DNA of 64,000 nt from Candidatus Bathyarchaeota archaeon (GCA_029259355.1 JAPDIZ010000003.1:69181-133180), one strand, 5' to 3'; shown: positions 11,511 to 45,098, counted from the first letter of the stretch. Notes: a model not told the origin generated them from the sequence alone. Made by a program: numbers and translations.

Positions 11511-12602
11511 TTGACAACCATATGGCTAGACGTGCTCACCCATAAGCACGCTCTCTTGCTTAAAGAAGTTGGAGAATACCTGCGGAGAAGAGGTTTCAAG
11601 GTCTTCTACACAGCGAGAAGGATGAGCACACTCACCGATTTCTTAAACGCTTTATCAATCGATGCAGAGGTCGTTGGAAGCCACGGAGGCCGAGATCTCC
11701 GCAGAAAGCTTCTCCAAAGCCTTCGCAGAGCAAAAGAGCTGGTTCGCGTAGTGTTGGAGAAAAAGCCCTCGCTAGCCATCTCCCACGGGTCTCCAGAAGC
11801 CACTCGCGTAGCCTTCGGCCTTAAAATACCCCACATATGCATCCTCGACTCCCCACACGCAGAAGCAGTGTGTAGGCTCACTATACCCCTCTCATCACAC
11901 CTCCTCAGTACTTGGGCTATCCCCAAGAAGAGGTGGACCCCATACCTGATAGGCGGTTGCAGGCTTAGAACGTACAGAGCGCTAGACCCCGCACTATGGA
12001 TAAGAGGTGTTGAGCACCAGCCAGAGGAAGAGCCCTTGGTCGTTGTGAGAGCTGAGGAGTACTTCGCATCCTACATGCCTAGAGACGTAAGCGCTGCTTC
12101 TCTGAAGCTGGTCAAAGAGCTTGGCGAGCTGTGTAGGCGTCGGAAAGCTCGTGTGCTGGTGCTGGCTAGGACAGAGACGCAAGCGCAGAGGCTTGAGAGT
12201 GTAGCGGGGGAGGGGGTCGAAGTCGTTTACGAGTTGTTTCACGGGTCTCAGGTGCTGAGCAGAGCATGGGTTTTCCTCGGGATGGGAGGTACCATGACCT
12301 ACGAAGCCTCTTTGCTGGGAGTACCAACCGTAGCCTTTCCCCCAAGAAAGCCCACTGACTTAGAGCTATTCCTAGCTCAGAGAGGACTCGTCAGCATCGT
12401 GTACTCCACGTCTGACGCGATATCTCGTGTAGAAAGCGTTCTAAGCAACCCAGAGCCAGCTTTTCGCCGCCAGCGAAAGCGAGCGCAAAAGCTCTGGAGC
12501 CGTATGAGCGTCGCCGACTTTTACGACAAGCTCCAGAAATGCATAGACGAAGCTGTGCATAGAAGCACCGCCGCTATAGCTGAGAAAGCCGACAGCAGCT
12601 GA
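11511..12602 (+). CDS. uncharacterised protein, possibly DUF354-like (GT-B-like fold?)
   Basis: 363-aa soluble protein in glycan locus; TTG start; family assignment from memory only. Confidence 0.35.
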   Translation: MTTIWLDVLTHKHALLLKEVGEYLRRRGFKVFYTARRMSTLTDFLNALSIDAEVVGSHGGRDLRRKLLQSLRRAKELVRVVLEKKPSLAISHGSPEATRVAFGLKIPHICILDSPHAEAVCRLTIPLSSHLLSTWAIPKKRWTPYLIGGCRLRTYRALDPALWIRGVEHQPEEEPLVVVRAEEYFASYMPRDVSAASLKLVKELGELCRRRKARVLVLARTETQAQRLESVAGEGVEVVYELFHGSQVLSRAWVFLGMGGTMTYEASLLGVPTVAFPPRKPTDLELFLAQRGLVSIVYSTSDAISRVESVLSNPEPAFRRQRKRAQKLWSRMSVADFYDKLQKCIDEAVHRSTAAIAEKADSS

Positions 12603-13571: not shown

Positions 13572-14675
13572 TTGGTTAAAGCGCTCATACTGGCTGGGGG
13601 TTTTGGTACTAGGCTTAGGCCGCTGAGCTGCACGAGGCCCAAGCAGCTATTTCCCGTGGGCAACCGCCCCCTACTCGAGTACCTCCTAGAGGGGCTTAGA
13701 GAAAGTGGTGTCGACACAGTCATATTAGCTACCAACTACATGGCGGATTATCTAGAGAAGTACTTTGGGGAAAGCTGGAATGGCTTGAAGATAAAGTACT
13801 CTCGCGAAGCAATCCCCCTCGGAACTGGGGGGCCTGTAAAGCGAGCCGAACCTCTCCTAGGGCATGATGAGCCCTTTTTGGTGCTCAACGGCGACATTCT
13901 GTCAAACATCCCCTACAACGAGATGCTCGATGCACACTTAGACAAAGAAGCTACGGCAACCATAGCGCTTAGGGAGGTAGAGGATCCTTCGCGATACGGT
14001 GTTGCAATAATGGACAATCACGGAAGGATACGAAAGTTCGTCGAAAAACCGAAGCCGGGAACCGCTCCCTCAAAGCTGATCAACGCGGGGGCGTATGTGC
14101 TGAGCCCAAAGATATTCGCTTACCTCCCAAACGAGGAGAGAAAAGTCTCTATGGAGAGAGAGGTTTTTCCCAAGCTCGCTGATCAGCAAAAGCTGTACGG
14201 GTTCTTCTATGAAGGGCTGTGGGTAGACATTGGAAAACCCGAGGATTACCTGAGGGCAAACTTCGAGATAGCCAAGCGCTTGGCAGGAGATGGTTTCGTA
14301 TTCGGACAAGGTGCTAGAATCGACGAAAACGTGGAGATCATCCCACCCGTACTCGTCGGAGACAACGTTGAGATAATGAGGAATTCGTGCATCGGGCCAT
14401 ACGTAGTCATAGGCAACAACGTAAGGATTCACGAAGGAGCTAGGCTCGAGAGAACCGTAGTCTTTCCAGACGCGGTGATCAAGAGCTTCTCCTCGCTCAA
14501 GGGAGCGATAATAGGTCAGGGAGCTGTCGTGGGTAGGTGGGTGAAGATCGAGGAAAACACCATAATAGGAGACGACGCGGAGATATTTGACAACGTTACG
14601 CTTGTAAGCGGCTGCTCGGTTTGCCCGTTTAAGGAAGTGTCGGAAAGCGTCTTATCGCCATCGAAGATTATGTAG
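13572..14675 (+). CDS. sugar-1-phosphate nucleotidyltransferase with C-terminal hexapeptide-repeat domain (paralog of 10092-11240)
   Basis: KALILAGGFGTRLRPLSCTRPKQLFPV; LbH repeats in the C-terminal third. Confidence 0.8.
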   Translation: MVKALILAGGFGTRLRPLSCTRPKQLFPVGNRPLLEYLLEGLRESGVDTVILATNYMADYLEKYFGESWNGLKIKYSREAIPLGTGGPVKRAEPLLGHDEPFLVLNGDILSNIPYNEMLDAHLDKEATATIALREVEDPSRYGVAIMDNHGRIRKFVEKPKPGTAPSKLINAGAYVLSPKIFAYLPNEERKVSMEREVFPKLADQQKLYGFFYEGLWVDIGKPEDYLRANFEIAKRLAGDGFVFGQGARIDENVEIIPPVLVGDNVEIMRNSCIGPYVVIGNNVRIHEGARLERTVVFPDAVIKSFSSLKGAIIGQGAVVGRWVKIEENTIIGDDAEIFDNVTLVSGCSVCPFKEVSESVLSPSKIM

Positions 14676-14690: not shown

Positions 14691-16064
14691 TTGACGAGAA
14701 GGCTGTTCGGCACAAATGGCATACGCGGAGTAGCTAACGAAGAGATTACCCCAGAATTCTCGGTTCGAATAGGCCAAGCCATAGGCACATTCTTCGGGTT
14801 AGGTAGCAAGATCTTGGTGGGGATGGATGGGAGAACTAGCAGCCCCATGATAAAAGCCGCTGTCGAAGCAGGTTTAGCTTCAGCTGGTGTCAAGGTATTC
14901 GACGCCGAAATGCTCCCCACACCAGCTCTTCAGTACGCGGTAAAGCACCTCGGCATGGATGGAGGAGTGATGATTACAGCCTCCCACAACCCCCCAGAGT
15001 TCAACGGGATAAAGGTGGTCTACAGCGACGGAGTCGAGCTTGACAGATCTCGAGAAGAGGAGGTTGAGCGCATATTCTTCGAGCAAAGCTTTGAGCAAGC
15101 GCCTTGGCACAAACTCCACGACCCCAAGAAGGTATCGAGCATCCTCGACCTGTACGTAGATGCAGTCAAGTCTCACGTAGATGTGGAGGCTATTCGAAAG
15201 CGGGGTTACACGGTTGTCGTGGACCCGGGAAACGGCGTTGGCGCGCTGACGACTCCTAAGCTCTTGAAAGAGCTTGGGTGCAGAGTGGTGGCTATAAACA
15301 GCGCGATAGATGGCTCCTTCCCAGGCAGACTACCTGAGCCGACGCCGGAAAACCTAGGCTTGCTCTCAGAGACCGTTAAAGCCGTTGACGCAGATCTTGG
15401 AGTAGCTCACGACGGAGATGCTGATAGAGCGATCTTCACCGACGAGTTTGGCGAGGTCCATTGGGGAGATGAAACGGGCATACTGGTCATGGAGCACCTA
15501 CTTAGACAGGGAAAAGGGAATGTGGTGGTTACTCCTGTAAGCTCGTCGCACATAGTTGAGGATATTGCACGCAAGTACGGCGCCAGAGTGGTTTGGACAA
15601 AGGTAGGATCCATAGTGGTCTCCAGAACCATGCTCAAGGAGGGAGCGATTTACTCCTACGAGGAGAACGGGGGAATCTTCTACAAGCCCCACCAGCCCGT
15701 GAGAGATGGAGCGATGGCTGTTGCTTTGGTGCTTAACATAATGGCTTCTACGGGCAAGACGCTTTCTCAGCTGCTGCGGGAACAACCCAAAGTCTACTTA
15801 GTGAAGAAGAAGGTGAAATGCCCTAATGAGTTGAAGGAGAAGGTGCTGGAGGAGCTCGTGAAGAAGACAGAGGGTATGAAGAGGATAACCATCGATGGCG
15901 TAAAAGTCCTCTTCAATGATGGAGCAGTGCTCATCAGGCCATCTGGCACTGAGCCTATCTACAGGTGCTTCTGCGAAGGCTACACTGAAGAGAGAGCTCG
16001 GGAACTCGCGGAGTGGGGCGTTAACCTGATTTCAGAAGCTGTGAAGAAAGTCTCCAGCTCATAG
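14691..16064 (+). CDS. phosphohexomutase (phosphoglucosamine/phosphomannomutase family)
   Basis: Active-site TASHNPPEFNGIK, metal-binding GVAHDGDADR, sugar-binding ...EENGG...; 457 aa. Confidence 0.85.
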   Translation: MTRRLFGTNGIRGVANEEITPEFSVRIGQAIGTFFGLGSKILVGMDGRTSSPMIKAAVEAGLASAGVKVFDAEMLPTPALQYAVKHLGMDGGVMITASHNPPEFNGIKVVYSDGVELDRSREEEVERIFFEQSFEQAPWHKLHDPKKVSSILDLYVDAVKSHVDVEAIRKRGYTVVVDPGNGVGALTTPKLLKELGCRVVAINSAIDGSFPGRLPEPTPENLGLLSETVKAVDADLGVAHDGDADRAIFTDEFGEVHWGDETGILVMEHLLRQGKGNVVVTPVSSSHIVEDIARKYGARVVWTKVGSIVVSRTMLKEGAIYSYEENGGIFYKPHQPVRDGAMAVALVLNIMASTGKTLSQLLREQPKVYLVKKKVKCPNELKEKVLEELVKKTEGMKRITIDGVKVLFNDGAVLIRPSGTEPIYRCFCEGYTEERARELAEWGVNLISEAVKKVSSS

Positions 16065-16808
16065 CCTCCTGCATTTTTCTCGAAACAGCCTCGCGTGCGC
16101 TCTTATGAATTCGAGGATCTCTCCCAAGTTTAGCTTAGACTCCCCCCGTCGCCTATCGAAGAAGATGAACGGAACCTCACCAACCTTGTAGCCCTTCTTC
16201 ACGCAGCGGAAGAGTATCTCCTCGACGTATGCATAGCCGCTGCTCTTGATCTCCGAGAGGCCTATGCTCGAGAGCACCTCTCTTCTGTAAGCCCTGAAAG
16301 CGCTCGTAACGTCGTGGGCTTTGAAGCCCAAGAGCTTTCGAGAGATGAGGTTTGCTATTCTGCTCGTCAAGTGCCTACGAGGACCCCACCCGTAGATGGC
16401 TCCACCCTCGACGTACCTAGAGCCGATGACCACATCGTAGCCCTCCTTTATCTTCGAAACCATTTCAGGAATCTTCTCAGGCGGGTGCGAGAGGTCGGCG
16501 TCCATCTCTAGCAGTATTGTGGCGCCCATCTCCAATGATCTGTTGAAGCCCTCTATCCTAGCGGTTCCCTCACCCATCTTCCTAGGGCGGGTGATTACGG
16601 TGATGTTTGGGTACTGCTTAGCCAGCTCTTTTGCAACCTGCGAGGTTCCGTCAGGGCTGTTGTCATCTACGACCACCACAGCCCATTTACGCGCTGTTTT
16701 CTCCAGCACACGCACGAGGCGAGGTATGAGTACCTTGATGTTTTCAGCTTCTTTGTAAGTGGGTACGACTACTGAGACGAATTCGTCGAGCGGAGGTTGT
16801 GCAGACAT
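16059..16808 (-). CDS. GT2 glycosyltransferase, dolichyl-phosphate hexose synthase (Dpm1-like)
   Basis: VSVVVPTYKEAENI, VVVVDDNSPDGT, catalytic MDADLSHPP; 249 aa. Confidence 0.8.
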   Translation of the reverse strand: MSAQPPLDEFVSVVVPTYKEAENIKVLIPRLVRVLEKTARKWAVVVVDDNSPDGTSQVAKELAKQYPNITVITRPRKMGEGTARIEGFNRSLEMGATILLEMDADLSHPPEKIPEMVSKIKEGYDVVIGSRYVEGGAIYGWGPRRHLTSRIANLISRKLLGFKAHDVTSAFRAYRREVLSSIGLSEIKSSGYAYVEEILFRCVKKGYKVGEVPFIFFDRRRGESKLNLGEILEFIRAHARLFREKCRRL

Positions 16809-16810
16809 GA

Positions 16811-17332
16811 CTACACCACGCTAAAGGTTATTCTGTTCCACTGCCCAGTAAACACGAAGGTGTGGCTTTGCTCGTCGTATAGCCAAAGCTCGAAAATTAG
16901 GTCGTAGTTTTCACCAGGAGTATCGATTACGTAGTTAAACTCGAGGAGACGAGACTCCTCATTTGCGAGGAAGACCTGGTATTCCTTTATCACGGGGAGG
17001 TCAGCTGGCTTCTCCGTTGTGGGAAGCACCTTCTCATTTTGCCCAAGCTTCACCAACACACGAGCCCAGATAGCTTTTCCCATGTAGTTGTCAAGCTCTA
17101 CCCAGAGCTTGACGGGCTCTCCAGCTCTCACGGGGTTATCGGGGGTTGGGTAGTCGGTAGCCATCTTGTTCGGTCCCAAGGTAGCGATCACCACAAACCT
17201 CTCCGCTGGCGGAGGCTTGAGAGCTGCGTACGCTACAAAAGCCAGCACCAGTATCGCCGCTATCGCAACCGTTAAGACCACAGCCGTCTCTTCGCTTACC
17301 CAGACCTCCTCTTCTTTAGGCAAGGACATCAC
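16811..17332 (-). CDS. hypothetical single-pass membrane protein
   Basis: N-terminal TM helix then soluble domain; 4-nt overlap with upstream ORF and 2-nt gap to the GT2 suggest co-transcription. Confidence 0.35.
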   Translation of the reverse strand: MMSLPKEEEVWVSEETAVVLTVAIAAILVLAFVAYAALKPPPAERFVVIATLGPNKMATDYPTPDNPVRAGEPVKLWVELDNYMGKAIWARVLVKLGQNEKVLPTTEKPADLPVIKEYQVFLANEESRLLEFNYVIDTPGENYDLIFELWLYDEQSHTFVFTGQWNRITFSVV

Positions 17333-17832
17333 CCAATTTCCTTCTCAAGCAATTCTTCCAAAGACCTCTTTTCCCACCACCGCCACAGCCTCCAAGCTCC
17401 GTAAGTAATAGCCACAACAGCGACGGGTACTGTGACGTAGACTAGTATCTGCGTGATCTGTCTCCACCGCTCAGCAGATTCTCCCAAGGAATTTGCTTGC
17501 CCAACGATTTCGTTCGAGATGGCTATGGAGTTTTCGAGGAACTTCTCCGCTGCTTCAGCATCTCCAGCCTCGTAAGCCTGCTGGGCTTTGTCGATTAAGC
17601 TCTGAGCCTCGTTAAGCATCTGGACAAGCTGATTCACATCAGCGCCCTTTTCCTCAGCGCTTCTCACGGCGAGAAAGGCTTCCTCCAAAGACTTGTTAGC
17701 TTGCTCCAGCTTCTCCTGATAGCTCGCGCACGCTACAGCTGGTAGGTGAGGCGAGGAGAGCGCCATAGTTAGGATCAAGACAATTAGCGCCCAGCTGCTC
17801 GATCTGTCGGCGAACATCTCGAGGCTCTCCAC
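17329..17832 (-). CDS. hypothetical secreted coiled-coil protein with C-terminal membrane anchor
   Basis: Signal-peptide-like N-terminus, alanine/glutamate-rich helical region, C-terminal TM followed by basic tail RLWRWWEKR. Confidence 0.35.
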   Translation of the reverse strand: MESLEMFADRSSSWALIVLILTMALSSPHLPAVACASYQEKLEQANKSLEEAFLAVRSAEEKGADVNQLVQMLNEAQSLIDKAQQAYEAGDAEAAEKFLENSIAISNEIVGQANSLGESAERWRQITQILVYVTVPVAVVAITYGAWRLWRWWEKRSLEELLEKEIG

Positions 17833-17886
17833 AGGGTAATAAGCTTGATAAGAGCTTCGTGCGGTGAATTTAAGAGTTAGCGTTAG

Positions 17887-20127
17887 GTGTTCCTCGTGAG
17901 CTCATACAGACCTGTTCAGGCAACAGCTCTTCTGTTGGTTGTGTTCGTGATCGGGTTCTTCACCAGAATTCTACTGTTTACCCAAGCCCCCACACCACCC
18001 GGCGATGACGAAGCCGTGCTCTGCGGAGTTGCTTCCTACGTGCTTGAAGAGGGAAAGCTTCCCGAGAAAAACCCCTACCACATGTACGGAACGCCCTTCG
18101 TCTACCCTCCGCTTATGCACCTACTCTGCGCTCTGACATCAGCCGCTTGTGGGCTGAGTGGGTGGGGGGTGCTTGGAGCAGCGCTGTGGCTAACCATTTC
18201 GATCGATACATTCACCACACTCGCAGTGTATGCCGTGTCTAAGAGAATTCTCCAAAGCGAAGCCTGCTCGCTCCTCTGCGCGCTTGCCTACTCAGTTGCC
18301 AGCCCCCACCTCTACATGATGTGCTGGGGTGGATACGTAAACTTGCTGACGCTCTTCTACGTACCCCTCATCGTGGGGGCGCTGCTCCGTCACCTAGGAG
18401 GAGACTTTGTGAGGGGGTTTCTGACGCTAACCATCTCTCTAACAGCCGTTTTCTACTCCCACCACTTCTCCGCTGCCATCACGCTAGCGCTATTGAGCTG
18501 CACCGTGTTGGCGTTAGCAGCTACCAGAGCTCGCGAGAAGAAGACGCTGAAGTGGTTTTTCTGGGCAAGCGCGGCCACCGCATCCTCAGCAGCTGCGTCT
18601 GGGGCTTGGTACATCCCCAGATACGCTGAGTTCGCCTCGATATTCGCTAAAGCTGGAGCAGAGGCCTCCGTTTCCGCAACCCCGCAGATGATCGCTGAGG
18701 CTGCGTCCACCACCATATTGGGTATGGGGGCACCCTTTGCTGCGCTACTGCTTTGGCTCGTTGCCCTAGGCTTTGACTACGTTTGTCGAAGAAGAGGCTA
18801 TCTCGGCGTTGAGACCATATGCGTCTTCACGTGGTTTCTGGTTCCCTCCTTGCTTGGGCTACCCTTCGTATCGAAATCCCCCATGCTCTTCCAGAGATTC
18901 TTCTACTTCTCCACTCAACCCCTCGTCATACTCGCCGCAACGGGGCTGTTCTACATAGCAGTTGTGAGCGCACGGCTCAGCGACGCGCCAGCAGCTTTCG
19001 CTACCTTAGCCGTATCGATGCTTCTACTGGGATACTTCTTGGGAAACTTCTACTTCATCGGCTTGAGAGGGTTCTACGACGGAAACCTTGAGTGGTTTAG
19101 GAGCGGAGACGCTTCGACCAAGCACCTCATTAACTGGCTGTTTACGAAGTCGGAAGAAGGTTGCGTCATAGCTTCCTCTCACTCTCTCGGGTGGTGGCTC
19201 TCCGGGTTTTCACACCGCGGCATCATACCAGCAACACCAGCTAAGTTCCTAACCTTTCCCTACGAACTCGACCTATGCAGAGCAGCGTTTGTCTGCGTAA
19301 ACACATGCGTCTGGGCGGAGTCTGGAAGACACGCACTTATGGACAACGGGTTGAGGGGTGTGTTAAAAACTCCTCAAGTGTGCGTCTTGCGAGCTGGTGA
19401 GGTCTACCCGGGGATAGAGCTAGACACCAGCAAGCTATGCGTAGTCGTAAGAGAGGGGGGTGTGGTAAGGCGTTATGAGCTAAGCGATTTTGAGCCATCT
19501 CGCTCAGAGCTCGTTGCGAAGGGCAATGCGGTAGAGATGCTGTACGCCTATGAAGCAGATGAGCTTTGGCTGCGCCGAAGAGTGATATTTCCAAACAGCT
19601 CTGAAGGAGCAGATGTCTACCTAGAGGTTGGGGGAAAAGAGGTTTTGGAGGTTTGGGTTGGAGTGGATACACCCCTCGCCTACGAAAAAGCATACGCTGG
19701 CGATGGATGGGTGGGCTTCTTCGACAAAGCCGAGATGCTTGGCGCAGTAGCAGTCTTTGATCCAGAGCCACACGCGGTGCTCGGCGGAGAGGAGGGGAGC
19801 TACTTGGTCGTCTTCTGGGGAGGAGGTGGAGAGTTCCGAGCCAAGATATCGCTGCTGGTATTCGACGCCAGCAAAGCGGAGGTTAGGGAGCCGAAGGATT
19901 GGCTTGAGGAGATGATAGAGGCTAAGGTGGGGGGAGGGGGCGTAGAAGTGGCTACGGTGGACGAGCTGATGGATGTCTACAAAATCTCGTACGTAGCTGA
20001 TCAGGATGGCTACACAGCATACTCCATAGCACGCAGCCCCCGCTTCGACCTGATCTACTCCTGCTACAAAACGAAGCGAGGCTGGGAGGAGCCTACGAGA
20101 GTCTTGGTGCATAAGCGCTTGCTCTAA
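17887..20127 (+). CDS. GT-C-fold membrane glycosyltransferase (STT3/AglB-like or PMT/ArnT-like), 13-TM N-terminus plus soluble C-terminal domain
   Basis: 746 aa; N-terminal polytopic region with acidic loop PPGDDEA; C-terminal soluble domain about 300 aa; a WW-containing stretch LGWWLSGFSHRG instead of a canonical WWDYG. Confidence 0.5.
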   Translation: MFLVSSYRPVQATALLLVVFVIGFFTRILLFTQAPTPPGDDEAVLCGVASYVLEEGKLPEKNPYHMYGTPFVYPPLMHLLCALTSAACGLSGWGVLGAALWLTISIDTFTTLAVYAVSKRILQSEACSLLCALAYSVASPHLYMMCWGGYVNLLTLFYVPLIVGALLRHLGGDFVRGFLTLTISLTAVFYSHHFSAAITLALLSCTVLALAATRAREKKTLKWFFWASAATASSAAASGAWYIPRYAEFASIFAKAGAEASVSATPQMIAEAASTTILGMGAPFAALLLWLVALGFDYVCRRRGYLGVETICVFTWFLVPSLLGLPFVSKSPMLFQRFFYFSTQPLVILAATGLFYIAVVSARLSDAPAAFATLAVSMLLLGYFLGNFYFIGLRGFYDGNLEWFRSGDASTKHLINWLFTKSEEGCVIASSHSLGWWLSGFSHRGIIPATPAKFLTFPYELDLCRAAFVCVNTCVWAESGRHALMDNGLRGVLKTPQVCVLRAGEVYPGIELDTSKLCVVVREGGVVRRYELSDFEPSRSELVAKGNAVEMLYAYEADELWLRRRVIFPNSSEGADVYLEVGGKEVLEVWVGVDTPLAYEKAYAGDGWVGFFDKAEMLGAVAVFDPEPHAVLGGEEGSYLVVFWGGGGEFRAKISLLVFDASKAEVREPKDWLEEMIEAKVGGGGVEVATVDELMDVYKISYVADQDGYTAYSIARSPRFDLIYSCYKTKRGWEEPTRVLVHKRLL

Positions 20128-26314: not shown

Positions 26315-27233
26315 AAAGCGCTTGCTGATAGGTTTGCTTGATGCTTTCCACAGCCTCCCAAAACAGCTTCTTCTCAACCTCGTCGAGGTCTAGAGCGCAA
26401 GGCTTTATCGACTTCCTGCCAAGCGAGAAAACCCAGTTTGCAAAGCACTTCACTCCATCTACCTCCACGAAGGAGCCTATGGTGAACTCCCTGTTTTCGT
26501 CTAGCAGGAGAGCTTTGGAAATCTCTCTAAAACATCCTACAGGCCCTGTTGAGGTCCCGCCCAGCTTAGCTATGACATCCCTAGCCATGCTGGACACGGC
26601 CTTTCTCGCCTCCTCAATAGAGACTTCGATCCCTTTCTCAGAGAGAAATTTGAAGAGCTTCTTGCCCCTAACCCAAGTTTGCGAAAGCACCGGGACGAGC
26701 TTCTCCCCGTGCTCACCCACGACTAGCGTAGACACCTCGTTTGGCGAAACCCCCAGCTTTTGCGAAATCCAAAGCCTAAGCCTCACCCCATCTAGAAACG
26801 TCCCGCTGCTGATGGCGTAGGGGAAGTTCCCCACCTCCTTCATAAGCCACGCCATAGCATCTACTGGGTTGGTGACGACAACGATGTGAGACTCTTGGTT
26901 AGTTTTCACCAACGACTCAGCGATGTCTGATATCACCTTAGCGTTGACCGCTGCCAAATCTTTGCGATCCATGTGCGGCTTCCTCGGAGAGCCTGCGCAC
27001 ACCAGCACCAAATCAGCTTGATCAAGCTCCTCCAGCGTGCTTAGAGTACGTACCTCGAGGTCTTTGCCACGTGCGCAAGCAGATATCATTAGCTCAAGCT
27101 TCAGCGCTTCAGCCAAGCCCGGTACAACGTCGTAGAGGGTGAGGCAGCCAACGTAGGGCTCGCTAGACATTGCGTGGGCATAGGTTCTTCCGATAAGCCC
27201 TAAGCCGATTACCGCGACGTGATACGTTACCAA
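26304..27233 (-). CDS. mdh: malate/L-lactate dehydrogenase (LDH-like MDH)
   Basis: VAVIGLGLIGRTYAH (NAD-binding), IVVVTNPVD, GEHGE. Confidence 0.8.
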   Translation of the reverse strand: MVTYHVAVIGLGLIGRTYAHAMSSEPYVGCLTLYDVVPGLAEALKLELMISACARGKDLEVRTLSTLEELDQADLVLVCAGSPRKPHMDRKDLAAVNAKVISDIAESLVKTNQESHIVVVTNPVDAMAWLMKEVGNFPYAISSGTFLDGVRLRLWISQKLGVSPNEVSTLVVGEHGEKLVPVLSQTWVRGKKLFKFLSEKGIEVSIEEARKAVSSMARDVIAKLGGTSTGPVGCFREISKALLLDENREFTIGSFVEVDGVKCFANWVFSLGRKSIKPCALDLDEVEKKLFWEAVESIKQTYQQALSSI

Positions 27234-28189
27234 GACAGCTCACCTCTCCTCGCATATCCCTTTACCACGTTAGCGAGGGTGAGGGGGATGTGCTCGTAGC
27301 TATCTACTACTTGAAACACTCCTCCAGATACCTTGGCCATCTCCCCACAAACCTCTCTATCGATAACCTTTCCCCTACGAGTCTGTACGCCAATTACGTG
27401 GAGCTGTGGGTACTTAGCAGCTACTGGCACGGGGTCTTCGGTTGTGTATATGCCGTCTGTTATGAGCACACCCATCTTCTCCTTATGAGAAGCTCGCTGA
27501 AGCTGCTGAAGCCCAGCTCTCAAAGCAGCAGCTATGTCCGTGTACCCAGTTGGTGGAGTTGACAGTATCTCCCTCACAATCGCTCTGACCTCCCTATACT
27601 CCCTCATGTCCTTAATTACCCTAGGCTTGTCGCTGTAAAGGATTACAGCATACTCCTCATCTCGCAAGAGGTAGGCCAAGACCGCTGTGGAGAGAGCTGC
27701 TACGAGTATTTTTGAACCAGACATCGAACCCGAGTGGTCCATGATGAGCGCAACAGACCTCTTCGTCCTCCACCTTTCGTAAGAAACCACATTCTCCAAG
27801 CTTGGCGAAAGAGTTTCGGTTACCCTCTCGATGGTCTCATCCCAGTCGATTAGGTCGTTGCCCGGCTCGTAGGGAACCCTCCTAAGCTTGGGAACAGGTT
27901 TTCCAATTCCTAAGAGCTCAAGCGCCTTTGCTTCTATCCAGTTTATGTATGTGTGCAGCACGAGATCGAGAACTTTGTCGGATAGCCAAGGCTTGACCTT
28001 GTAAAAGACCTCTAGGAAGCGCGTTGGGTGGTCTTCGACGAATCTTTTGGCATACTCTGGGTCGCGGTTTAGGTAGCTAGCTATGGTGTCTGCGCGGAAA
28101 TCGGAGAACTTCCTCAGAGATTCAACGTCCAGCTCCCTGAGCGCGTCAGCGATCATCTTCCTATAGCTCTGCAGCGGGGCTTGGCTCAC
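27227..28189 (-). CDS. von Willebrand factor A (VWA) domain protein
   Basis: MIDAS motif DHSGSMSG (D-x-S-x-S) within a VWA-like fold; 7-nt overlap with mdh start. Confidence 0.75.
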   Translation of the reverse strand: MSQAPLQSYRKMIADALRELDVESLRKFSDFRADTIASYLNRDPEYAKRFVEDHPTRFLEVFYKVKPWLSDKVLDLVLHTYINWIEAKALELLGIGKPVPKLRRVPYEPGNDLIDWDETIERVTETLSPSLENVVSYERWRTKRSVALIMDHSGSMSGSKILVAALSTAVLAYLLRDEEYAVILYSDKPRVIKDMREYREVRAIVREILSTPPTGYTDIAAALRAGLQQLQRASHKEKMGVLITDGIYTTEDPVPVAAKYPQLHVIGVQTRRGKVIDREVCGEMAKVSGGVFQVVDSYEHIPLTLANVVKGYARRGELSW

Positions 28190-28193
28190 CCAC

Positions 28194-29186
28194 TCAACGC
28201 CTTCTTCCTCCTCTTCGAGGCGAGGGGGTTCCAGCCCCCTTTGCTCGAAAAAAGGGCTCAGAGGATGGTTCTTGAGCCACAGCTCCTCCTCTAAGCGCCA
28301 TCGAAACTATCTCTGACACGATCTGCTCCCTAGTCTTGGTCACGTCGTCTCTTACGCGGATTTTCTTGGTAAACGCCATCAGCGCAGCGTTTAGCAGAAT
28401 GCTCTCATTTCTCCAATCCCCTCCCTCGCTACACAGCTCGCCGAGCACGATGCCCATGTGTATCCCAGCTCTGAGAGAAACCCCAGAAACCAAGTCAGGG
28501 TGCCTATAGGTTAGGTCTACGCACGCTTCGATTAGGTCAAGCAGCTCATCGTTTTTGGCTATATGGTCGTATCCCCTCGCCAAGAGCTCCCTCTTGATTA
28601 TCTCCCTCTCCTCTAAGGGGTCTTGCCTCCTCATCGGAACCCAAACAAATCTATCTATAGCGGCTTCGGGCAGGGGATAAGTTCCCGCATACTCCATGGG
28701 GTTAGCTGTGACGATTACCGAGAAGCCCTTCTTTGCCCTAACCCCACCGAGCTTGGGTATGTGTATCACCCTCTCGTCCATAGCTGTCAACAGGACATTC
28801 CACGTATCGGAGGGTAGCCTAGTCCCCTCGTTTATGAACAAGATACCTCCATCAAGCATAGCCCTCGTCAGCGGGCCTGGGACAAAGGTGTCCCACGAAA
28901 AGCCTGGCTTTATCCCAAGCTTCTCAGCTTCTTCAGCGTTCATCAAGACGAGGGAGGGGTCAAACCACCCAACGATCTTGGAGGGCGTGATGTCGGGGGC
29001 GCCGTCAACGCGGTAGAATGGCCTACCCAGCGCCTTAGCTATCTCCATGCAGATCTTGGTCTTTCCCCTGCCCACGTCGCCCTCTATCAAAACCGGGGTC
29101 TCAGACCTCAGCGCAGCCAGTATGAGCCTAACCTCAACTCTCCGCCCAACAACGGCTTTCTCGAGCTTCTTGAGCACTTCGTCCAT
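28194..29186 (-). CDS. AAA+ ATPase, MoxR/ChlI-like
   Basis: Walker A GDVGRGKT; Walker B-like ILFINEGTR; immediately upstream of the VWA gene. Confidence 0.7.
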   Translation of the reverse strand: MDEVLKKLEKAVVGRRVEVRLILAALRSETPVLIEGDVGRGKTKICMEIAKALGRPFYRVDGAPDITPSKIVGWFDPSLVLMNAEEAEKLGIKPGFSWDTFVPGPLTRAMLDGGILFINEGTRLPSDTWNVLLTAMDERVIHIPKLGGVRAKKGFSVIVTANPMEYAGTYPLPEAAIDRFVWVPMRRQDPLEEREIIKRELLARGYDHIAKNDELLDLIEACVDLTYRHPDLVSGVSLRAGIHMGIVLGELCSEGGDWRNESILLNAALMAFTKKIRVRDDVTKTREQIVSEIVSMALRGGAVAQEPSSEPFFRAKGAGTPSPRRGGRRR

Positions 29187-34714: not shown

Positions 34715-36028
34715 TTGAAAATAGGCTTGGTAACCGAGTTTTTCCCTCCCTACATACTTGGTGGAGGAGAGCTTAGCGTAAAAGAATTAGGCAAAGCGCT
34801 GGCAGAGGCTGGCGAGGAAGTTTACGTCATAACACCTAGCTACGATGGGTGGAGAGGGGAACTCAGCTTAGACGGATACACCGTCGTGTACTACCCTTTT
34901 CCCCTCAAACAAGCTTTTGATCACAGATACCTAGTCGGAAACCCCCTCTTCTTTAGGTACATGGCTAGGGAAGTTGGCAAAGCCTGTTCGAAGTATTCGA
35001 TAGAAATCTTGCACGCGCAAAACAAGTACGCCGTCCCAGGAACCATATACGCTGGGGAAAAAGCCAGCATCCCAGTTGTAGCAACGCTGAGAGATACCAT
35101 AGCTATCTGCGAATTCGGCATATGCTTGCTCAGTTTTCCACACAAACCTCCTAGGTGGTGTAGCTTCTGGAAGCGACTGCGCTGTTGCATAAACTTTCTA
35201 GAGATGTATAGCGATAGTGTCTCGACTCTGGATAAGCTAGTAAAAGCTCCTCTACTAGCTACTTACTCAGCTTACTTAGCTCGTGTCTTGAGAAGCGATC
35301 TTCGAAAAGTGGACAAGATAGTTTTCGCAAGCCAAGGGCTTCTGGAAGTCTACGCTAGCCTAGATCTCCCGCGCGAAAAGCTAGCAGTTATACCCAACAT
35401 CCCTCCTCGCATAGAGGCGAAGGCAGGGAATCACCGAGACGTTAGGAAAAGCTTAGCCGTCGGGGAAGACGCTTTTCTCGTGGTGTATGCGGGTAGGATC
35501 TCTTGGGGAAAAGGAGTCCATACGCTTTTAGAAGCTGTACGCTTGCTGATGAGAAGAGGTGAGGCAAAGAATCTGAAGGTGGCGCTGGTTGGAGGAGGCT
35601 TGGTGAACCGCTTCACAGAAATCAGCAGAGAATACGGGCTTAACGATTCTGTGATGTTTTTGGGTCCTCGCCCCCACGACTTCGTACTCTCGCTTGTTGC
35701 ATCATCTGATGCTGCTGTCATGCCATCTGTGTGGCCAGAACCTCTGAGCAGGTTTGTTCTGGAAGCTATGGTGCTATCCAAGCCCATAATCGCCACGAGA
35801 GTTGGGGGAAACCCAGACGCCGTCATAGACGGAGAAAACGGCTTCCTTGTCAAACCCAGTAGCCCCACAGAGTTAGCAAACGCTCTATCCAAGTTGATCA
35901 ACAACCCCGACCTACGCAAAAAGATGGGGGCTCGAAGCAGAGAACTCGTTAAAGAGATATTCAGCAGAGAGGAGATCGTGAAGAAAACGCTCGACCTATA
36001 TCGCGATGTGTTGGAGGCGAAGCGTTAA
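34715..36028 (+). CDS. GT4 glycosyltransferase (GT-B, group 1)
   Basis: N-terminal KIGLVTEFFPPYILGGGE; C-terminal VMPSVWPEPLSRFVLEAMVLSKPIIATRVGG. Confidence 0.8.
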   Translation: MKIGLVTEFFPPYILGGGELSVKELGKALAEAGEEVYVITPSYDGWRGELSLDGYTVVYYPFPLKQAFDHRYLVGNPLFFRYMAREVGKACSKYSIEILHAQNKYAVPGTIYAGEKASIPVVATLRDTIAICEFGICLLSFPHKPPRWCSFWKRLRCCINFLEMYSDSVSTLDKLVKAPLLATYSAYLARVLRSDLRKVDKIVFASQGLLEVYASLDLPREKLAVIPNIPPRIEAKAGNHRDVRKSLAVGEDAFLVVYAGRISWGKGVHTLLEAVRLLMRRGEAKNLKVALVGGGLVNRFTEISREYGLNDSVMFLGPRPHDFVLSLVASSDAAVMPSVWPEPLSRFVLEAMVLSKPIIATRVGGNPDAVIDGENGFLVKPSSPTELANALSKLINNPDLRKKMGARSRELVKEIFSREEIVKKTLDLYRDVLEAKR

Positions 36029-37944
36029 CGAAGACCTGATACAGACTCAAAGTCATATGCTTTATCGAGCGCGTTTATTCGGTGCACTGGATATCCTACA
36101 TCGAGTATCCTATCCGTCAGAGGGGTTTTATCCATCTCCACGCGAATCGATTTTACGTAGTAGAAATCGACGAACTCGAGGTTTTGCAAGTTCACATAGC
36201 CTATCCTGCCAGTCCATGGGTCAAAGTAAAAGGGCGAAATGCTGTTCGATGGAAAGGGAGCGCTCCTCCCTAGCCAGTTGATGACTATGAAGTCCCTCTG
36301 AGTTATTCTTACACCAAACATCTCACTACAATACTCGAAGTAGCTGATCGCGTATAGACAAGCCACCACAGTTATCGCCGCGAGTAGAGCGTAGCGAATA
36401 TACCTAGTTGCTGAGCCGAGTAGCTTGAGAACATAGCTTAACCCAACAGCTGCTAGAACGCAGGCAGGCACAGAAGATACGTAGACAAACCGGGGGATGT
36501 CTGGCGTGTCTAGGGGGAACTGCGCGTAGAACAGGCTTTGCTCAGCCAACACGACTGAGGAGAGAAGCCAAAGAACCAATAGCTTTCCTCCATACCCCTC
36601 TTCGAAAAACGCGTAAAAAAGCCCAGCTAACGTGAGCACGAAGACTATAGGCGAGAAGTTGGATACAAAGTCGAACAGAAGCCTGACAGGGACCTCGACC
36701 ACCTCCTCATAGTACATAGACACTCTTCCATAGACTATGAGGTATGTCACAGAAACAACTAACAAGCCCACAAACGCCTTTTTAGCCCAGCTCCAGCGGA
36801 GCCAGCTAGCTTCTTTCCTCGCTGTAAGCACTAAAGCTACAGCCAACATTGCGTAGATGAAAATCGACGCAGGATATGGATGCGTCAGCATCAGCGAAAA
36901 AACCATGATAGCGAGGGGGAGGAGAAGCCTATCGTCTCGCCTCTTCAAGTAGCAGAGGAAGCAGTGAGCAGCGTAAATCGAGAGAGCTACACCCATTAAG
37001 CACTTGTAGAGGTCAGAGGTGTGTCTGAGGATTCCCGGAGAGGTAGCGAAGAAAACCCCGGCAAAGGCCGCGGCTAGCTGGCTGCCAGTGAGCCTGTGGA
37101 CAAGCCCATAAGCCCCCACAGCCCCAAGCGCCATTAACAAAAGCGGCAACAGCTCAACCACCCTTATCCAGTAGGGTTTGTGGAGTGGTTGGAGAAAAGC
37201 GCCAATAGCCTCAAACGTTAGGTGAGCACCTTTGGTCATGAGCGGAAACTCGTGTGGAGAAACCCTATGCTCCAAAGTAGCGATGTAGATGGGTACGTCC
37301 CAGCCTACGGGCGCGTGAAGGCCTACGCTAGCAAATAACCGAGTGCTAACCGCTACAAGCGACACGAGAAAAAGCGGAAGAAACGAGTTCGGTGTAGTTG
37401 GCGAAGCAGTTTGTATAGTTCCTAAAGCGCCTTTCCCCCTATCAACAGCACTTTTCAAAAGAGACGAAAAGGTCCACCAATAAAGAAGCAAGAGCACAAC
37501 CTTGGTGGAAAGCTCGATCATCCAAGGTAACCTAAAGCCAGCTTGTGTTAGAGCAAATTCCACGAGGAAAGAGGGAGCTGCTACAAAGATCCACAGCTGC
37601 TGAATGGGCTTAGCGTTTCTGGGAAAAGCTAGGAGCGCATCACGTAACCAGTTCGGCGCAGCGATCCAGGCAGCTGTATAGATTGTGAAAGCGGCGAGAA
37701 GAGCAACTAGAAGTAGACGGGTAATGCCTCTCTTCAACTGGCGATGAGTTAGCCACCCCAACAGCGCTCCAAATGCTAGCGCAGCAAAGATTATTGAGCA
37801 GCATTGGCTGTGGCCAGGGTATGCGGTAAGGGCAATAGCTCCAGCACCAGTTGGTATCAGCAACAGCAGCCACGCAACTACGTCTATCCATCTTCTCCGC
37901 ACTTTGGATATACACCTGCCATCGCTCGCATAACTGCTCAACAA
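36025..37944 (-). CDS. large polytopic membrane protein, possible GT-C-like glycosyltransferase or polymerase
   Basis: 639 aa, more than 12 predicted TM helices by hydrophobicity, C-terminal soluble region; no diagnostic motif recognised. Confidence 0.4.
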   Translation of the reverse strand: MLSSYASDGRCISKVRRRWIDVVAWLLLLIPTGAGAIALTAYPGHSQCCSIIFAALAFGALLGWLTHRQLKRGITRLLLVALLAAFTIYTAAWIAAPNWLRDALLAFPRNAKPIQQLWIFVAAPSFLVEFALTQAGFRLPWMIELSTKVVLLLLYWWTFSSLLKSAVDRGKGALGTIQTASPTTPNSFLPLFLVSLVAVSTRLFASVGLHAPVGWDVPIYIATLEHRVSPHEFPLMTKGAHLTFEAIGAFLQPLHKPYWIRVVELLPLLLMALGAVGAYGLVHRLTGSQLAAAFAGVFFATSPGILRHTSDLYKCLMGVALSIYAAHCFLCYLKRRDDRLLLPLAIMVFSLMLTHPYPASIFIYAMLAVALVLTARKEASWLRWSWAKKAFVGLLVVSVTYLIVYGRVSMYYEEVVEVPVRLLFDFVSNFSPIVFVLTLAGLFYAFFEEGYGGKLLVLWLLSSVVLAEQSLFYAQFPLDTPDIPRFVYVSSVPACVLAAVGLSYVLKLLGSATRYIRYALLAAITVVACLYAISYFEYCSEMFGVRITQRDFIVINWLGRSAPFPSNSISPFYFDPWTGRIGYVNLQNLEFVDFYYVKSIRVEMDKTPLTDRILDVGYPVHRINALDKAYDFESVSGLR

Positions 37945-38065
37945 TTGGCTTCCTCGCTCTTAAGGAGGTTTTCGTAAAAAGATGTTGACGCTACAGCATC
38001 TCTAGTCAGTAGTCAAGTTCTTTAAGAAGCATGTCAAACGAGATTATTGCGGGATAGGTGGTCAG

Positions 38066-39019
38066 ATGCGGCGCATCACCATAGCTATCCTCGTCGTGCT
38101 GCTTTCTGCCCTAGTCATCGTTTTGCTGAAGCCCATGGGAGAAGCGGTTAGCAAGCCAGAGCTTGAGTGGAGCAGCGACGTCAAGCCTGGCTCAGGGCCT
38201 GGTCAGCCCCCGCCCGACATGCCTCCCGACGCTGATGGGCCGTGGAATCACCGCATACTGATTGCGTGCTCATCCGATGGGCTATCTTGGCAGAAAAAGT
38301 ACGTAATTTTAGCTGACCAAGCATCTGTTCCAGACGCCATCATCGACAAAGAGGGGAACATACGCGTATACTATTGCGACTACTTCAACGGCGGGATCAC
38401 CGTAGCCATATCCAAAGACGGCGAGAACTGGATCTATAAGCGAGTAAAGGGCTTATCCCCGGAGTGGGCTGACCCAGACGTAGTCATCCTACCCGACGGG
38501 AGGTATAGGCTATACGCTTCATACTTCCCCTTGGTGGGGAGCCAAGACCGCATAGTATCCGCTATCTCAGAAGACGGCATCAACTTCATACCCGAGGAGG
38601 GAAACCGCTATCATGAACCCGGAACTCTGCTAGCCGACCCCGATGTCTTCTGGGCTGGAGACCACTGGGTCATGTTCGTCGATACAGGCGGAGCCTTGAT
38701 CATGCTAACCTCAGAGGATGGGCTCAACTTCACGAAGATTGGGGAATTGGAGCTTGAAGTTGATTCTGGAGGTGTATCTTGCACAATCCCCGTCGAAGGT
38801 GGGTACAGGATATACTTCCACCGCGGCAAGCCTCTTCAAATCTACTCCGCCTTTACATCAGACCTCAAAAACTGGTCAGAGCCAGTGCTCGTGCTTGAGG
38901 CTGGCGAACCCGGGTCACTCGACGAGTTTGGAACCGCGGATCCTGCGGTTGTCAAGCTTCCACAAGGGGGATACCTGATGTTCTACAAAACCTGGATAAA
39001 CCCGCCAAAAAGCCTCTAG
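38066..39019 (+). CDS. secreted BNR/Asp-box repeat beta-propeller protein (putative glycosidase-like)
   Basis: Signal peptide MRRITIAILVVLLSALVIVLL; four Asp-box-like repeats (SSDGLSW, SKDGENW, SEDGINF, SEDGLNF). Confidence 0.6.
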   Translation: MRRITIAILVVLLSALVIVLLKPMGEAVSKPELEWSSDVKPGSGPGQPPPDMPPDADGPWNHRILIACSSDGLSWQKKYVILADQASVPDAIIDKEGNIRVYYCDYFNGGITVAISKDGENWIYKRVKGLSPEWADPDVVILPDGRYRLYASYFPLVGSQDRIVSAISEDGINFIPEEGNRYHEPGTLLADPDVFWAGDHWVMFVDTGGALIMLTSEDGLNFTKIGELELEVDSGGVSCTIPVEGGYRIYFHRGKPLQIYSAFTSDLKNWSEPVLVLEAGEPGSLDEFGTADPAVVKLPQGGYLMFYKTWINPPKSL

Positions 39020-39024
39020 CCACT

Positions 39025-40014
39025 CTACGATTTTACAAAAGCAAGCTTTGGGAAGCGCCTCCCAAAGAAGAAGCCGATTAGGTGAGAAGCCGTCACGACT
39101 GGGTAGTAGACAAGCGATGCCAACCAAACCAAGGGGTTCTTCGTACGGATCATTGCGCGCAAGAAATAGGCTAAGTCTACGATCAGGGCTGCAGAGAGAA
39201 ACGCGTAGACCAAGGTTATGGCAGTCTCTACTCTCAGCAGAGCCCATAGAAGAAGAGAGAGCGAAATCATCAAGAGATAGGCGATGAATAGATTGCTCAG
39301 CAACCGCTTAGCTCTCCACGCGCCATATAGGGAGTCGCAGTAGCCTAAGCCAAGACCTTGCCTAAGCTCCTTCCTCGCTATAGCGCGCAACCCATTCTCC
39401 ACTTCATGAAAAACCACTGCATTAGGCTGGTAGACTATTTGACAACCAAGAGCCTTGAGGATTCTGTGAGCTATTTCTTGGTCTTCACATGCGACCAGCT
39501 CCTCGTTGAAGCCTCCAACAGCCTCTACGACGAACCTTCTGTAGGCGCAGTTTACCGTTGAGAAGTCTTGCCCAGGTTTCATCACTCGCCTCTGCTGCTT
39601 TGCCTTAGCCAAAAACCCCAATTCCCTTACCTTTGAGAAGATGCCTCTAGATTTCATCGGAAGCTGCCTACCTACGACGCCACAAACCTCCTTCTCCTCA
39701 AACTCCGACAACAAGCTCTCAAGCCATCGGGAGTCGGCTACGCAGTCTGCGCTGATGAAGCAAACATACTCTCCTTTCGCACTCGAAACCCCGACGTTTC
39801 TAGCGTGCCCAAAGGTGTGTTTTCGCTCAATAACTACGCGCGCACCCATTTCCTCAGCAATCTCCTTAGTCCTATCTACCGACTCACCATCGACAACGAT
39901 TATCTCATAGGATTCTCGGGGAAGCGTCTGCTTTAGAAGCGAGTCGATGCAAGCGCCTATGCTATCCTCTTCGTTTCTGGCTATGATGATCACAGATGCT
40001 AGCAGTTTCTCCAA
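39025..40014 (-). CDS. GT2 glycosyltransferase with C-terminal transmembrane segments
   Basis: SVIIIARNEEDSI...IIVVDGESVDRT (GT2 nucleotide-binding region); hydrophobic C-terminus. Confidence 0.75.
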   Translation of the reverse strand: MEKLLASVIIIARNEEDSIGACIDSLLKQTLPRESYEIIVVDGESVDRTKEIAEEMGARVVIERKHTFGHARNVGVSSAKGEYVCFISADCVADSRWLESLLSEFEEKEVCGVVGRQLPMKSRGIFSKVRELGFLAKAKQQRRVMKPGQDFSTVNCAYRRFVVEAVGGFNEELVACEDQEIAHRILKALGCQIVYQPNAVVFHEVENGLRAIARKELRQGLGLGYCDSLYGAWRAKRLLSNLFIAYLLMISLSLLLWALLRVETAITLVYAFLSAALIVDLAYFLRAMIRTKNPLVWLASLVYYPVVTASHLIGFFFGRRFPKLAFVKS

Positions 40015-40090
40015 CTACTCACACCTGCGCTAAGCTTTAACTCCACGGCTAAAAATAGCTATTCGCGTTTGCGGAGAGATGCGTTGAAAG

Positions 40091-42389: not shown

Positions 42390-42401
42390 GGCGGTGGTTT
42401 A

Positions 42402-42743
42402 TTGGAGGCGTACTACCTAGCCTTAGCAGCCTTTGGCGCGTTGATGGCTTACCTAACCTTTAGGGAGTATCGAAGGCGGAGGATTAGGCTAAGCAGCTTA
42501 ATCCTCTGGGAGATGCTATGGGTTTCGATCACGGTTTTCTGTCTATACCCTCCGCTGATAACCATAGCCATCGAAGCGCTGAACGTCGCTTTGCCAGTCC
42601 ACCTCTTCTCCGTTGCATCCATTCTGGTTCTCTTCGTGTTGGTGTATAGGCTATACGCAAAGCTTGAGGAGCTCAACAAAAACCTCATAAGGCTTGCGAG
42701 AGAGGTTGCGCTACGCCAGCTCGATGAGGAGCAAAAGAGCTAG
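42402..42743 (+). CDS. small membrane protein, DUF2304-like (GT2-associated)
   Basis: 113 aa, about 3 TM helices followed by a short helical tail; 3' end overlaps the convergent GT2. Confidence 0.45.
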   Translation: MEAYYLALAAFGALMAYLTFREYRRRRIRLSSLILWEMLWVSITVFCLYPPLITIAIEALNVALPVHLFSVASILVLFVLVYRLYAKLEELNKNLIRLAREVALRQLDEEQKS

Positions 42744-43414: not shown

Positions 43415-43421
43415 GGCTCGC

Positions 43422-45086: not shown

Positions 45087-45098
45087 CTCCTCCCCCAG

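Follow-up and report, generated by a model that had tools for sequence, protein, structure and literature searches.

The stretch of 64,000 nucleotides (nt) from Candidatus Bathyarchaeota archaeon that is analysed here (GCA_029259355.1 JAPDIZ010000003.1:69181-133180; called the window, at its full length) contains three successive open reading frames (ORFs) on the minus strand, at 16059-17832, which encode two small membrane proteins, P1 and P2, and a family 2 glycosyltransferase (GT2), together with a divergent gene for a polytopic protein of 746 amino acids (aa). P1 and P2 are the two halves of one conserved module: P2 is a member of the Pfam family DUF1616 (PF07760)/COG4743, and P1 is the N-terminal half of the module, which in other genomes is encoded by adjacent or fused genes. 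The module could serve as a non-catalytic adaptor or scaffold in envelope glycoprotein assembly that depends on hexoses carried by dolichol phosphate (Dol-P-hexose); we place this reading somewhat short of an even chance. The features on which the argument is built are as follows.

17329-17832, minus strand: P1, longest ORF, 167 aa from GTG
17329..17817, minus strand: P1, probable form, 162 aa from the ATG at 17817
16811-17332, minus strand: P2, 173 aa from GTG (172 aa from the alternative ATG at 17329)
16059-16808, minus strand: GT2, 249 aa from ATG
17887-20127, plus strand: polytopic protein, 746 aa (743 aa from the alternative start at 17896), divergent to the operon
17818..17895, no strand: divergent intergenic region with two A/T-rich TATA-like elements, read from the sequence

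The relationship between P1 and P2 is most evident outside the window. A genome scan with an alignment of 10 P2 sequences, taking one genome per GTDB species, gave 69 loci, 68 of them with a P2 homologue, and the loci, from Thermoproteota and Asgard archaea, belong to Desulfurococcales, Sulfolobales, Ignisphaera, Bathyarchaeia, Nitrososphaerales, Nezhaarchaeota and the Asgard lineages Borr-, Hel- and Promethearchaeota. A hidden Markov model (HMM) of P1, built iteratively after masking of the P2 domain, finds in 49 of the 68 loci a P1 homologue directly upstream of P2, on the same strand and usually overlapping it; the two are fused in the order P1-P2 in eight loci and in the order P2-P1 in one, so that P1 is adjacent or fused to P2 in 58 of the 68 loci. 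The remainder consists of three loci at a contig end and seven in which P1 was not detected, some of these being artefacts of the ORF start. Therefore, P1 and P2 are regarded as a single module with two transmembrane (TM) segments, which is split into two genes in the window. One locus, L066 (CAWETL010000004.1), is titled as a Gemmatimonadales bacterium metagenome-assembled genome and carries an archaeal-type P1-P2 pair followed by an AglJ-like GT2 and by GT4 genes, which may be due to mis-binning or to a transfer.

The fused proteins explain the long forms of P2. In P0008, P0009, P0014, P0017, P0020, P0026 and P0027, P1 is joined to P2 in the order signal peptide, helical ectodomain, TM segment, basic W-x-x-W-x-R-x-R linker, second TM segment and beta-sandwich, and permuted fusions of the type P2-P1(-P3), where P3 is a 4-TM protein treated below, are found in P0015, P0038 and L018. 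The AlphaFold2 (AF2) model of the fused P0008 (predicted local distance difference test score, pLDDT, 91.4; predicted template modelling score, pTM, 0.80) contains three short helices and a long helix that spans the ectodomain through the membrane. Foldseek matched this model only via its immunoglobulin (Ig) domain, and the whole P1-P2 architecture is therefore without a solved analogue.

P2 scores 33.2 bits against the Pfam DUF1616 profile (gathering cut-off 31.6, E = 4e-8), shares the motifs YP, VKLG and FELW with DUF1616 proteins, and is likewise placed in this family by public precomputed annotation. Its match is confined to positions 152-287 of 307, in the C-terminal part, and P2 lacks the N-terminal 4-TM domain (profile positions approximately 1-121; LPGY...LER.ALSIGLS...PL.GL.LN.TPWGIRL), which in related loci is the separate protein P3. 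The preliminary description had called both small proteins uncharacterised; they are not orphans, P2 belonging to DUF1616 and P1 being its obligate partner. An exhaustive HMMER search gave 235 representative P2 homologues, which are either short (about 160-210 aa) or long (about 300-360 aa). P2 itself is a membrane protein of type-II-like build, in which a single TM helix is combined with an extracellular seven-strand CARDB/Ig-like beta-sandwich: the AF2 model (alignment of 34 sequences, pLDDT 94.6) places the TM helix at residues 14-38, before the seven strands, and hydropathy likewise gives one TM segment, in agreement with the earlier description of a single-pass membrane protein. With the P2 model as query, Foldseek ranked highest the CARDB domain of PF1109, the Fn3-like domain at the C-terminus of GH3 glucosidases and MG domains of complement, while a PDB sequence search with P2 yielded no meaningful match. 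The fold is a generic Ig-like sandwich, which implies binding or scaffolding and no specific function. The DUF1616 protein HVO_2173 of Haloferax volcanii is an AglB-dependent N-glycoprotein, and one of its mapped peptides lies in the domain homologous to P2 (PMC8241124); because this peptide is N-glycosylated, the P2-type domain is extracellular.

P1 has a signal-like hydrophobic N-terminus with a cleavage-type end (AVACA followed by S), a helical ectodomain of some 90 aa and, towards the C-terminus, a TM segment that is followed by a basic, Trp/Arg-rich cytoplasmic tail (RLWRWWEKR). No Pfam, NCBIfam or PDB family was found for it, the PDB matches being weak ones to designed helical bundles. 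The topology proposed earlier, a secreted protein with a C-terminal anchor, was retained, but its ectodomain, described then as a coiled coil, is better called a small helical bundle, judging from how the fused homologue P0008 was modelled by AF2. The W-x-x-W-x-R-x-R tail after the TM segment of P1, the counterpart of the linker in the fusions, is as conserved in homologues without a nearby GT2 as in the others. An archaeosortase sorting signal at the C-terminus of P1 was also considered and judged unlikely, since the tail is too long and corresponds to the linker between the TM segments of the fused proteins.

The family ectodomains are rich in N-X-S/T sequons in comparison with shuffled sequences, with a mean of 4.7 versus 1.6 in P2 homologues and of 1.8 versus 0.9 in P1 homologues. 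In the window, P2 has no sequon, P1 has one and the 746-aa protein has one, so the lineage of the window seems depleted of sequons in all three proteins. NVT is often found near the end of P2, where a sequon lies within the last 11 aa in 20 of the 50 split pairs, and a G-x-N-x-S/T motif is present in P1 in 21 of the 50.

The three-gene operon exists as originally drawn: the ORF listing agrees exactly with its coordinates, with the overlap of 4 nt between P1 and P2 (junction GGG-TGA-TG) and with the gap of 2 nt between P2 and GT2 (TAG-tc-ATG), and the plus-strand ORF at 17887-20127 is directly divergent from it, as had been stated. The start of P1 needs revision, for the GTG codon of the longest ORF is not kept in L001, a relative with 84% identity, and the start is therefore probably the ATG at 17817, which public gene callers also use. 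P2 may start at the ATG at 17329, in which case TGATG would leave an overlap of 1 nt with P1. All four genes are under purifying selection, the ratios of nonsynonymous to synonymous substitution (dN/dS, Nei-Gojobori) against L001 being 0.11 for P1, 0.04 for P2, 0.12 for GT2 and 0.13 for the 746-aa protein; ratios of 0.04-0.13 mean that these are real, constrained genes and not chance ORFs. Of the two TATA-like elements in the intergenic region, GCTTATTA precedes the ATG of P1 by about 20-27 nt and AATTTAAG precedes the alternative start (17896) of the polytopic protein by about 23-30 nt, an arrangement that suggests back-to-back promoters and leaderless mRNAs. No tRNA or Rfam elements were found in the window. 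Word-indexed searches with P1, P2 and the 746-aa protein as queries gave only relatives at 75-100% identity, whose synteny is uninformative on linkage because it is identical to that of the window; the nearest P2 relatives in the genome collection are only 36% identical.

GT2 matches Pfam Glycos_transf_2 (1.5e-36), and its best PDB match is the Dol-P-mannose synthase of Pyrococcus furiosus, PfDPMS (5mlz, 2.9e-41, chain residues 25-248 of 374). The two proteins align through the catalytic domain and the interface helices, up to the point where the four TM helices of PfDPMS start. The metal-binding DXD/DAD motif is kept, DADLSH of GT2 aligning to 89-DADLQH-94, and R131, R145 and S149 of GT2 stand, in an ungapped alignment, opposite chain residues R139, R153 and S157, which are Arg117, Arg131 and Ser135 of native PfDPMS. 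These three residues bind the phosphate of Dol-P and are conserved in bona fide Dol-P-mannose synthases, DPMSs (PMC5526996). The motif, the three residues and the PfDPMS match bear out the proposal that GT2 is a polyprenyl-phosphate hexose synthase. Hydropathy gives no hydrophobic segment in GT2; it is a TM-less Dol-P-mannose-synthase-like enzyme that has the sequence features of DPMSs, and its architecture, a catalytic domain with interface helices only, resembles type II, represented by human DPM1. Since PfDPMS without its TM domain still goes to the membrane and is fully active (PMC5526996), a membrane anchor is not obligatory for such a GT2.

Two plus-strand genes converge on GT2 and are arranged alike in close relatives.

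13572-14675, plus strand: GMPPB-like nucleotidyltransferase (Pfam)
14691-16064, plus strand: phosphomannomutase/phosphoglucomutase (Pfam), overlapping the 3' end of GT2 by 6 nt

These phosphomannomutase (PMM) and GMPPB-like genes fit a pathway from GDP-mannose (GDP-Man) to Dol-P-mannose (Dol-P-Man), and the mannose specificity of GT2 is predicted from this context, all NCBIfam equivalog cut-offs being missed. The overlap of GT2 with the phosphomannomutase gene (16059-16064) is convergent, as is that between the genes of a DUF354 protein and a GT4 (Glycos_transf_4, AglH-like), which measures 82 nt when the longest ORFs are taken (12521-12602).

In the divergent 746-aa protein, residues 1-385 contain about 11 hydrophobic segments, with an acidic PPGDDE motif just after TM1, and a soluble C-terminal domain of about 360 aa follows. 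The protein has no sequence match in Pfam, NCBIfam or PDB, even at E <= 5. A polytopic N-terminal part and an acidic residue in the first extracytoplasmic loop are traits of GT-C enzymes, and the topology is compatible with a putative GT-C-type transferase that would use Dol-P-linked sugar. A second group of polytopic proteins, family X (about 500-560 aa, 10-12 TM helices), is characterised by an SHH motif and by an Asp that is invariant and closely follows TM1, and its profile likewise has no Pfam or PDB match. When the first 190 residues of the 746-aa protein are compared with family X by hhalign (probability 90.6%, E = 1.3e-6), D40/D41 fall on the invariant Asp and the SHH motif is also aligned, so that the two appear to be remotely related. 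The label of GT-C protein given to the 746-aa protein earlier is thus favoured by its polytopic nature, the Asp in the loop and the remote likeness to family X, whereas a match to any recognised GT-C family is missing. Family X may be an undescribed candidate GT-C family. Its members (L010:7104-8729, L013:7011-8627, L027:9254-10861, L037:13028-14641, L045:12636-14180 and others) were seen in the fetched loci only close to the P1-P2 module.

The neighbourhood of the module is dominated by other genes. The gene after P2 is most often P3, a 4-TM protein of about 190 aa that matches the N-terminal part of the DUF1616 profile (28 of 61 +1 neighbours), and by a P3 HMM this protein stands next to the module in 45 of the 68 loci. 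Upstream genes encode DUF4350, DUF58/von Willebrand factor A (vWA) and MoxR AAA+ proteins (approximately 33 loci, by a local, uncurated HMM), and P1-P2-P3 is directly downstream of DUF4350/DUF58/MoxR in about half of the related loci. P3 and MoxR/vWA/DUF4350 are therefore the commonest partners of the module, and GT2 and GT-C are less constant. This neighbourhood matches the putative secretion or membrane-remodelling system of arCOG01314 and arCOG02884, itself a prediction, that Makarova, Galperin & Koonin put forward in 2015 (PMC5898192).

In the window, searches at E <= 1 over the 64 kb found neither P3 (P3 HMM) nor a DUF4350-like protein (local iterative HMM seeded on DUF4350 proteins of the related loci). 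A MoxR and vWA/DUF58 pair is present 10 kb from P1-P2, on the same strand and outside the P1-P2 operon.

27227-28189, minus strand: vWA/DUF58 protein (Pfam)
28194-29186, minus strand: MoxR-type AAA+ ATPase (Pfam)

Sugar-nucleotide and GT4 genes separate this pair from P1-P2, as if a glycosylation island had been inserted. Further away, at 34715-46514, lies a second glycosylation cluster.

34715-36028, strand not given: GT4 of the second glycosylation cluster
36025-37944, strand not given: 639-aa protein, no Pfam match
43422-45086, strand not given: family-X-like polytopic protein (HMM E = 6e-6, no Pfam match)
45099-46514, strand not given: UDP-glucose/GDP-mannose dehydrogenase of the second glycosylation cluster

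Two peculiarities of the related loci concern P3 and its surroundings. Archaeosortase-like genes adjoin or lie near P1-P2-P3 in seven loci (L016, L024, L028, L035, L041, L055 and L058; for example L035:7921-9567 and L028:9707-11854), Pfam Exosortase_EpsH being confirmed in L028, L035, L041 and L055, while L024 has no Pfam match and L016 and L058 were assigned by a local HMM only; these neighbours hint at a link to the processing of surface-protein C-termini. The protein encoded at L032:2303-4627 (minus strand; 774 aa, 16 predicted TM segments) has an N-terminal P3-type DUF1616 domain and a weak DUF6541 match further on, which shows that the P3 domain can also occur within far bigger polytopic proteins.

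The linkage to glycosylation was judged from the distances of GT2 and family X genes to the module. Within 1 kb of the module there are 16 GT2 starts in 118 locus-kb, where 3.9 are expected, and at 2-9 kb there are 21 in 630 locus-kb; the enrichment within 1 kb is about 4-fold (Poisson P = 4e-6, a value that ignores the relatedness of the loci). On the downstream side 11 GT2 starts fall in the first kb, as compared with 0-3 per kb farther out. A GT2 lies within 3 kb in 20 of the 68 loci, from Asgard, Thermoprotei, Bathyarchaeia and Nezhaarchaeota. Eight of ten neighbouring GT2s scanned against NCBIfam best match the AglJ and Dol-P-hexose transferase models, and the AglJ-like ones, of about 300 aa, align with the AglJ model over almost the full length. 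By sequence these neighbours are of the Dol-P-hexose-synthase type and are not orthologues of the DPMS-type GT2 of the window, so that the same place beside the module is taken by non-orthologous Dol-P-hexose synthases. In 13 of the 68 loci family X is no farther than 3 kb from the module, and among 30 loci flanked on both sides by at least 9 kb it is found at 0-3 kb in eight and at 6-9 kb in none (p = 0.005). Taken together, a GT2 or a family X gene is within 3 kb in 31 of the 68 loci, and in 25 of the 41 loci flanked on both sides by at least 3 kb. The expectation that the pair would co-occur with GT2 genes in other genomes is supported at the scale of 1 kb but not at 3 kb, where the difference is not significant; for GT-C-like genes it is supported by family X, whereas no orthologue of the 746-aa protein was found next to modules elsewhere.

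The reading that connects these observations is as follows. P1 and P2 would assemble through their two TM helices into a heterodimer, with the helical bundle of P1 packed next to the CARDB/Ig-like sandwich of P2 on the outer face and a short Trp/Arg-rich amphipathic segment on the cytoplasmic face. Having no catalytic signature, the module would be an extracytoplasmic scaffold or adaptor of an envelope assembly machinery, the predicted arCOG01314/MoxR/vWA 'secretion or S-layer' system, and this machinery would be functionally tied to lipid-linked (Dol-P-hexose) glycosylation. In the lineage of the window the module may have lost P3 and DUF4350, or been parted from them; it is translated together with a TM-less Dol-P-mannose synthase, next to the genes of GDP-mannose supply, and the divergent GT-C-like polytopic protein would use Dol-P-Man outside the membrane. 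A more specific and rather unlikely version is that P1-P2 (with P3 where present) is an unrecognised third component of archaeal Dol-P-hexose-dependent extracytoplasmic glycosylation, that is, an outward-facing adaptor or hand-over factor coupling AglJ- or DPMS-type synthases to GT-C-like transferases such as family X and the 746-aa protein.

Several points weigh against the adaptor reading. The GT2 excess fails to reach significance when counted over 3 kb (11 of 30 loci at 0-3 kb versus 5 of 30 at 6-9 kb, p = 0.14), and the Poisson value at 1 kb is overstated because the loci are phylogenetically non-independent. In 37 of the 68 loci neither GT2 nor family X lies within 3 kb, and in the 11 distant DPMS-like loci that a GT2-anchored metagenome scan gave, no P1, P2 or P3 was found nearby, which is a weak negative. 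The GT-C nature of the 746-aa protein and of family X is only putative, given that neither has Pfam or PDB matches. The heterodimer is predicted from a fused homologue, and the function assigned to every member is inferred.

The most serious competitor, doubtful in our opinion but carrying a sizeable share of the probability, is that P1-P2 is an envelope, secretion or S-layer part of the arCOG01314 type with no mechanistic tie to lipid-linked sugar transfer, and that the proximity of GT2 and GT-C genes reflects only a general clustering of cell-surface genes. The predominance of P3 and DUF4350/DUF58/MoxR among the partners agrees with this, as does the prediction of the arCOG01314 system without a glycosylation link in the part of PMC5898192 that describes it, and GT2 genes are fairly common also at 6-9 kb. 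It accounts less well for the concentration of GT2s directly beside the module, for the fact that the scanned GT2 neighbours are mostly of the Dol-P-hexose-synthase type in at least three phyla, for the restriction of family X to the vicinity of the module and for the translational coupling of the window pair to a synthase. The preliminary suggestion that the two proteins are accessory factors of lipid-linked sugar transfer is partly supported: it gains from the recurrent glycosylation neighbours but is weakened by the greater constancy of P3 and MoxR/vWA/DUF4350. The companion suggestion, that P1 and P2 are mere glycoprotein substrates of the surrounding pathway, fares worst and is the least probable of the explanations weighed. 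The sequon-rich family ectodomains and the N-glycosylation of HVO_2173 would suit substrates; the window P2, however, lacks any sequon and one is present in P1, translational coupling to the enzyme that synthesizes the donor is rare among substrates, and the obligate pairing, the fusions and a dN/dS of 0.04 point to a dedicated function.

Two further explanations assign P1 and P2 a direct role beside the synthase. As part of a GtrA- or ArnE/F-like translocation device, P1-P2 (with P3 where present) would move or hand over Dol-P-hexose from the synthase to an outward GT-C; the logic of the locus, with GT2 synthase, small membrane protein and GT-C, is that of bacterial three-component systems (PMC11127046), and the 12-25 kb island showed no further candidate for a flippase. 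We nevertheless regard it as improbable, as a heterodimer would bring just two TM helices, few for moving a lipid, similarity to the GtrA or SMR families is lacking, the large ectodomains are left unexplained and P3, the 4-TM candidate, is absent from the window. Also in its favour, the TM-less DPMS of the window lacks the TM domain for which flipping of the enzyme's own product has recently been proposed (PMC12992685, abstract). Alternatively, P1 and P2 could be functional analogues of DPM3 and DPM2, or of mycobacterial Ppm2, which tether, stabilize or activate a TM-less Dol-P-Man synthase. GT2 indeed lacks the 4-TM domain of PfDPMS, like the type II DPM1 that needs DPM2 and DPM3, it shares its operon with two small membrane proteins, and the TM segment of P1 is followed by a conserved amphipathic cytoplasmic tail. 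This tail, however, is equally conserved where no GT2 is near, TM-less PfDPMS finds the membrane and works fully by itself, and neither protein has a Pfam DPM2 or DPM3 match; moreover, DPM2 and DPM3 have 80-90 aa, two TM segments and no ectodomain, whereas P1 and P2 (162 and 172 aa, one anchor each) are mostly extracellular. Such an analogy is therefore very improbable.

What the adaptor reading would mean depends on a family that is common and poorly understood. Proteins of arCOG02884/pfam07760 were reportedly present in 293 genomes in a 2019 survey of archaeal 'dark matter', and we know of no experimental study of them. The underlying system has already been predicted and is uncharacterised; what is new here is the P1 partner with its fusions, the association with Dol-P-hexose synthases and family X. 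If the adaptor reading is true, the predicted archaeal 'secretion system' would be linked to lipid-linked envelope glycosylation, and if the third-component version is true, the widespread pfam07760/arCOG02884 family would gain a role in the assembly of glycans or the S-layer. The adaptor reading, if true, would also direct attention to homologues in genetically tractable organisms, HVO_2173 in Haloferax and MMP0360 in Methanococcus, and the natural P1-P2 fusions can be used for structure work.

Compared with known systems, the locus combines familiar and divergent characteristics. The bacterial GtrB/GtrA/GtrX and ArnC/ArnEF/ArnT systems likewise consist of a GT2 polyprenyl-phosphate sugar synthase, a large polytopic putative GT-C and one or more small membrane proteins, but the small proteins of the window are single-pass with large ectodomains and not 4-TM GtrA/SMR proteins (a Pfam scan of the ORFs at 6256-29186 found no flippase family of this kind), dolichol phosphate would serve as carrier and the GT-C is putative. 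Eukaryotic type II DPM1/DPM2/DPM3 also pairs a TM-less catalytic subunit that has a DADLSH-type motif with two small membrane proteins; P1 and P2, in contrast, have no sequence or topological similarity to DPM2 and DPM3. Set against the arCOG01314 system (PMC5898192), the window has P1-P2 and, 10 kb away and outside that operon, a MoxR and vWA/DUF58 pair, whereas P3 and DUF4350 are absent from its 64 kb and the pair is coupled to a putative Dol-P-Man synthase instead; section 3.2 and Table 2 of that 2015 account include neither the P1 partner and the fusions nor a link to Dol-P-hexose synthases or family X. From the DUF1616 family (HVO_2173; MMP0360 of Methanococcus maripaludis) P2 has the common TM and beta-sandwich region, but the profile begins with the 4-TM domain that the window's P2 lacks and does not cover P1. 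The best structural match of the P2 ectodomain is the CARDB domain of Pyrococcus furiosus PF1109 (PDB 3idu/2kl6; target-normalised TM-score 0.66-0.75), to which P2 is only 14-17% identical in sequence, and P2 has no Pfam CARDB match.

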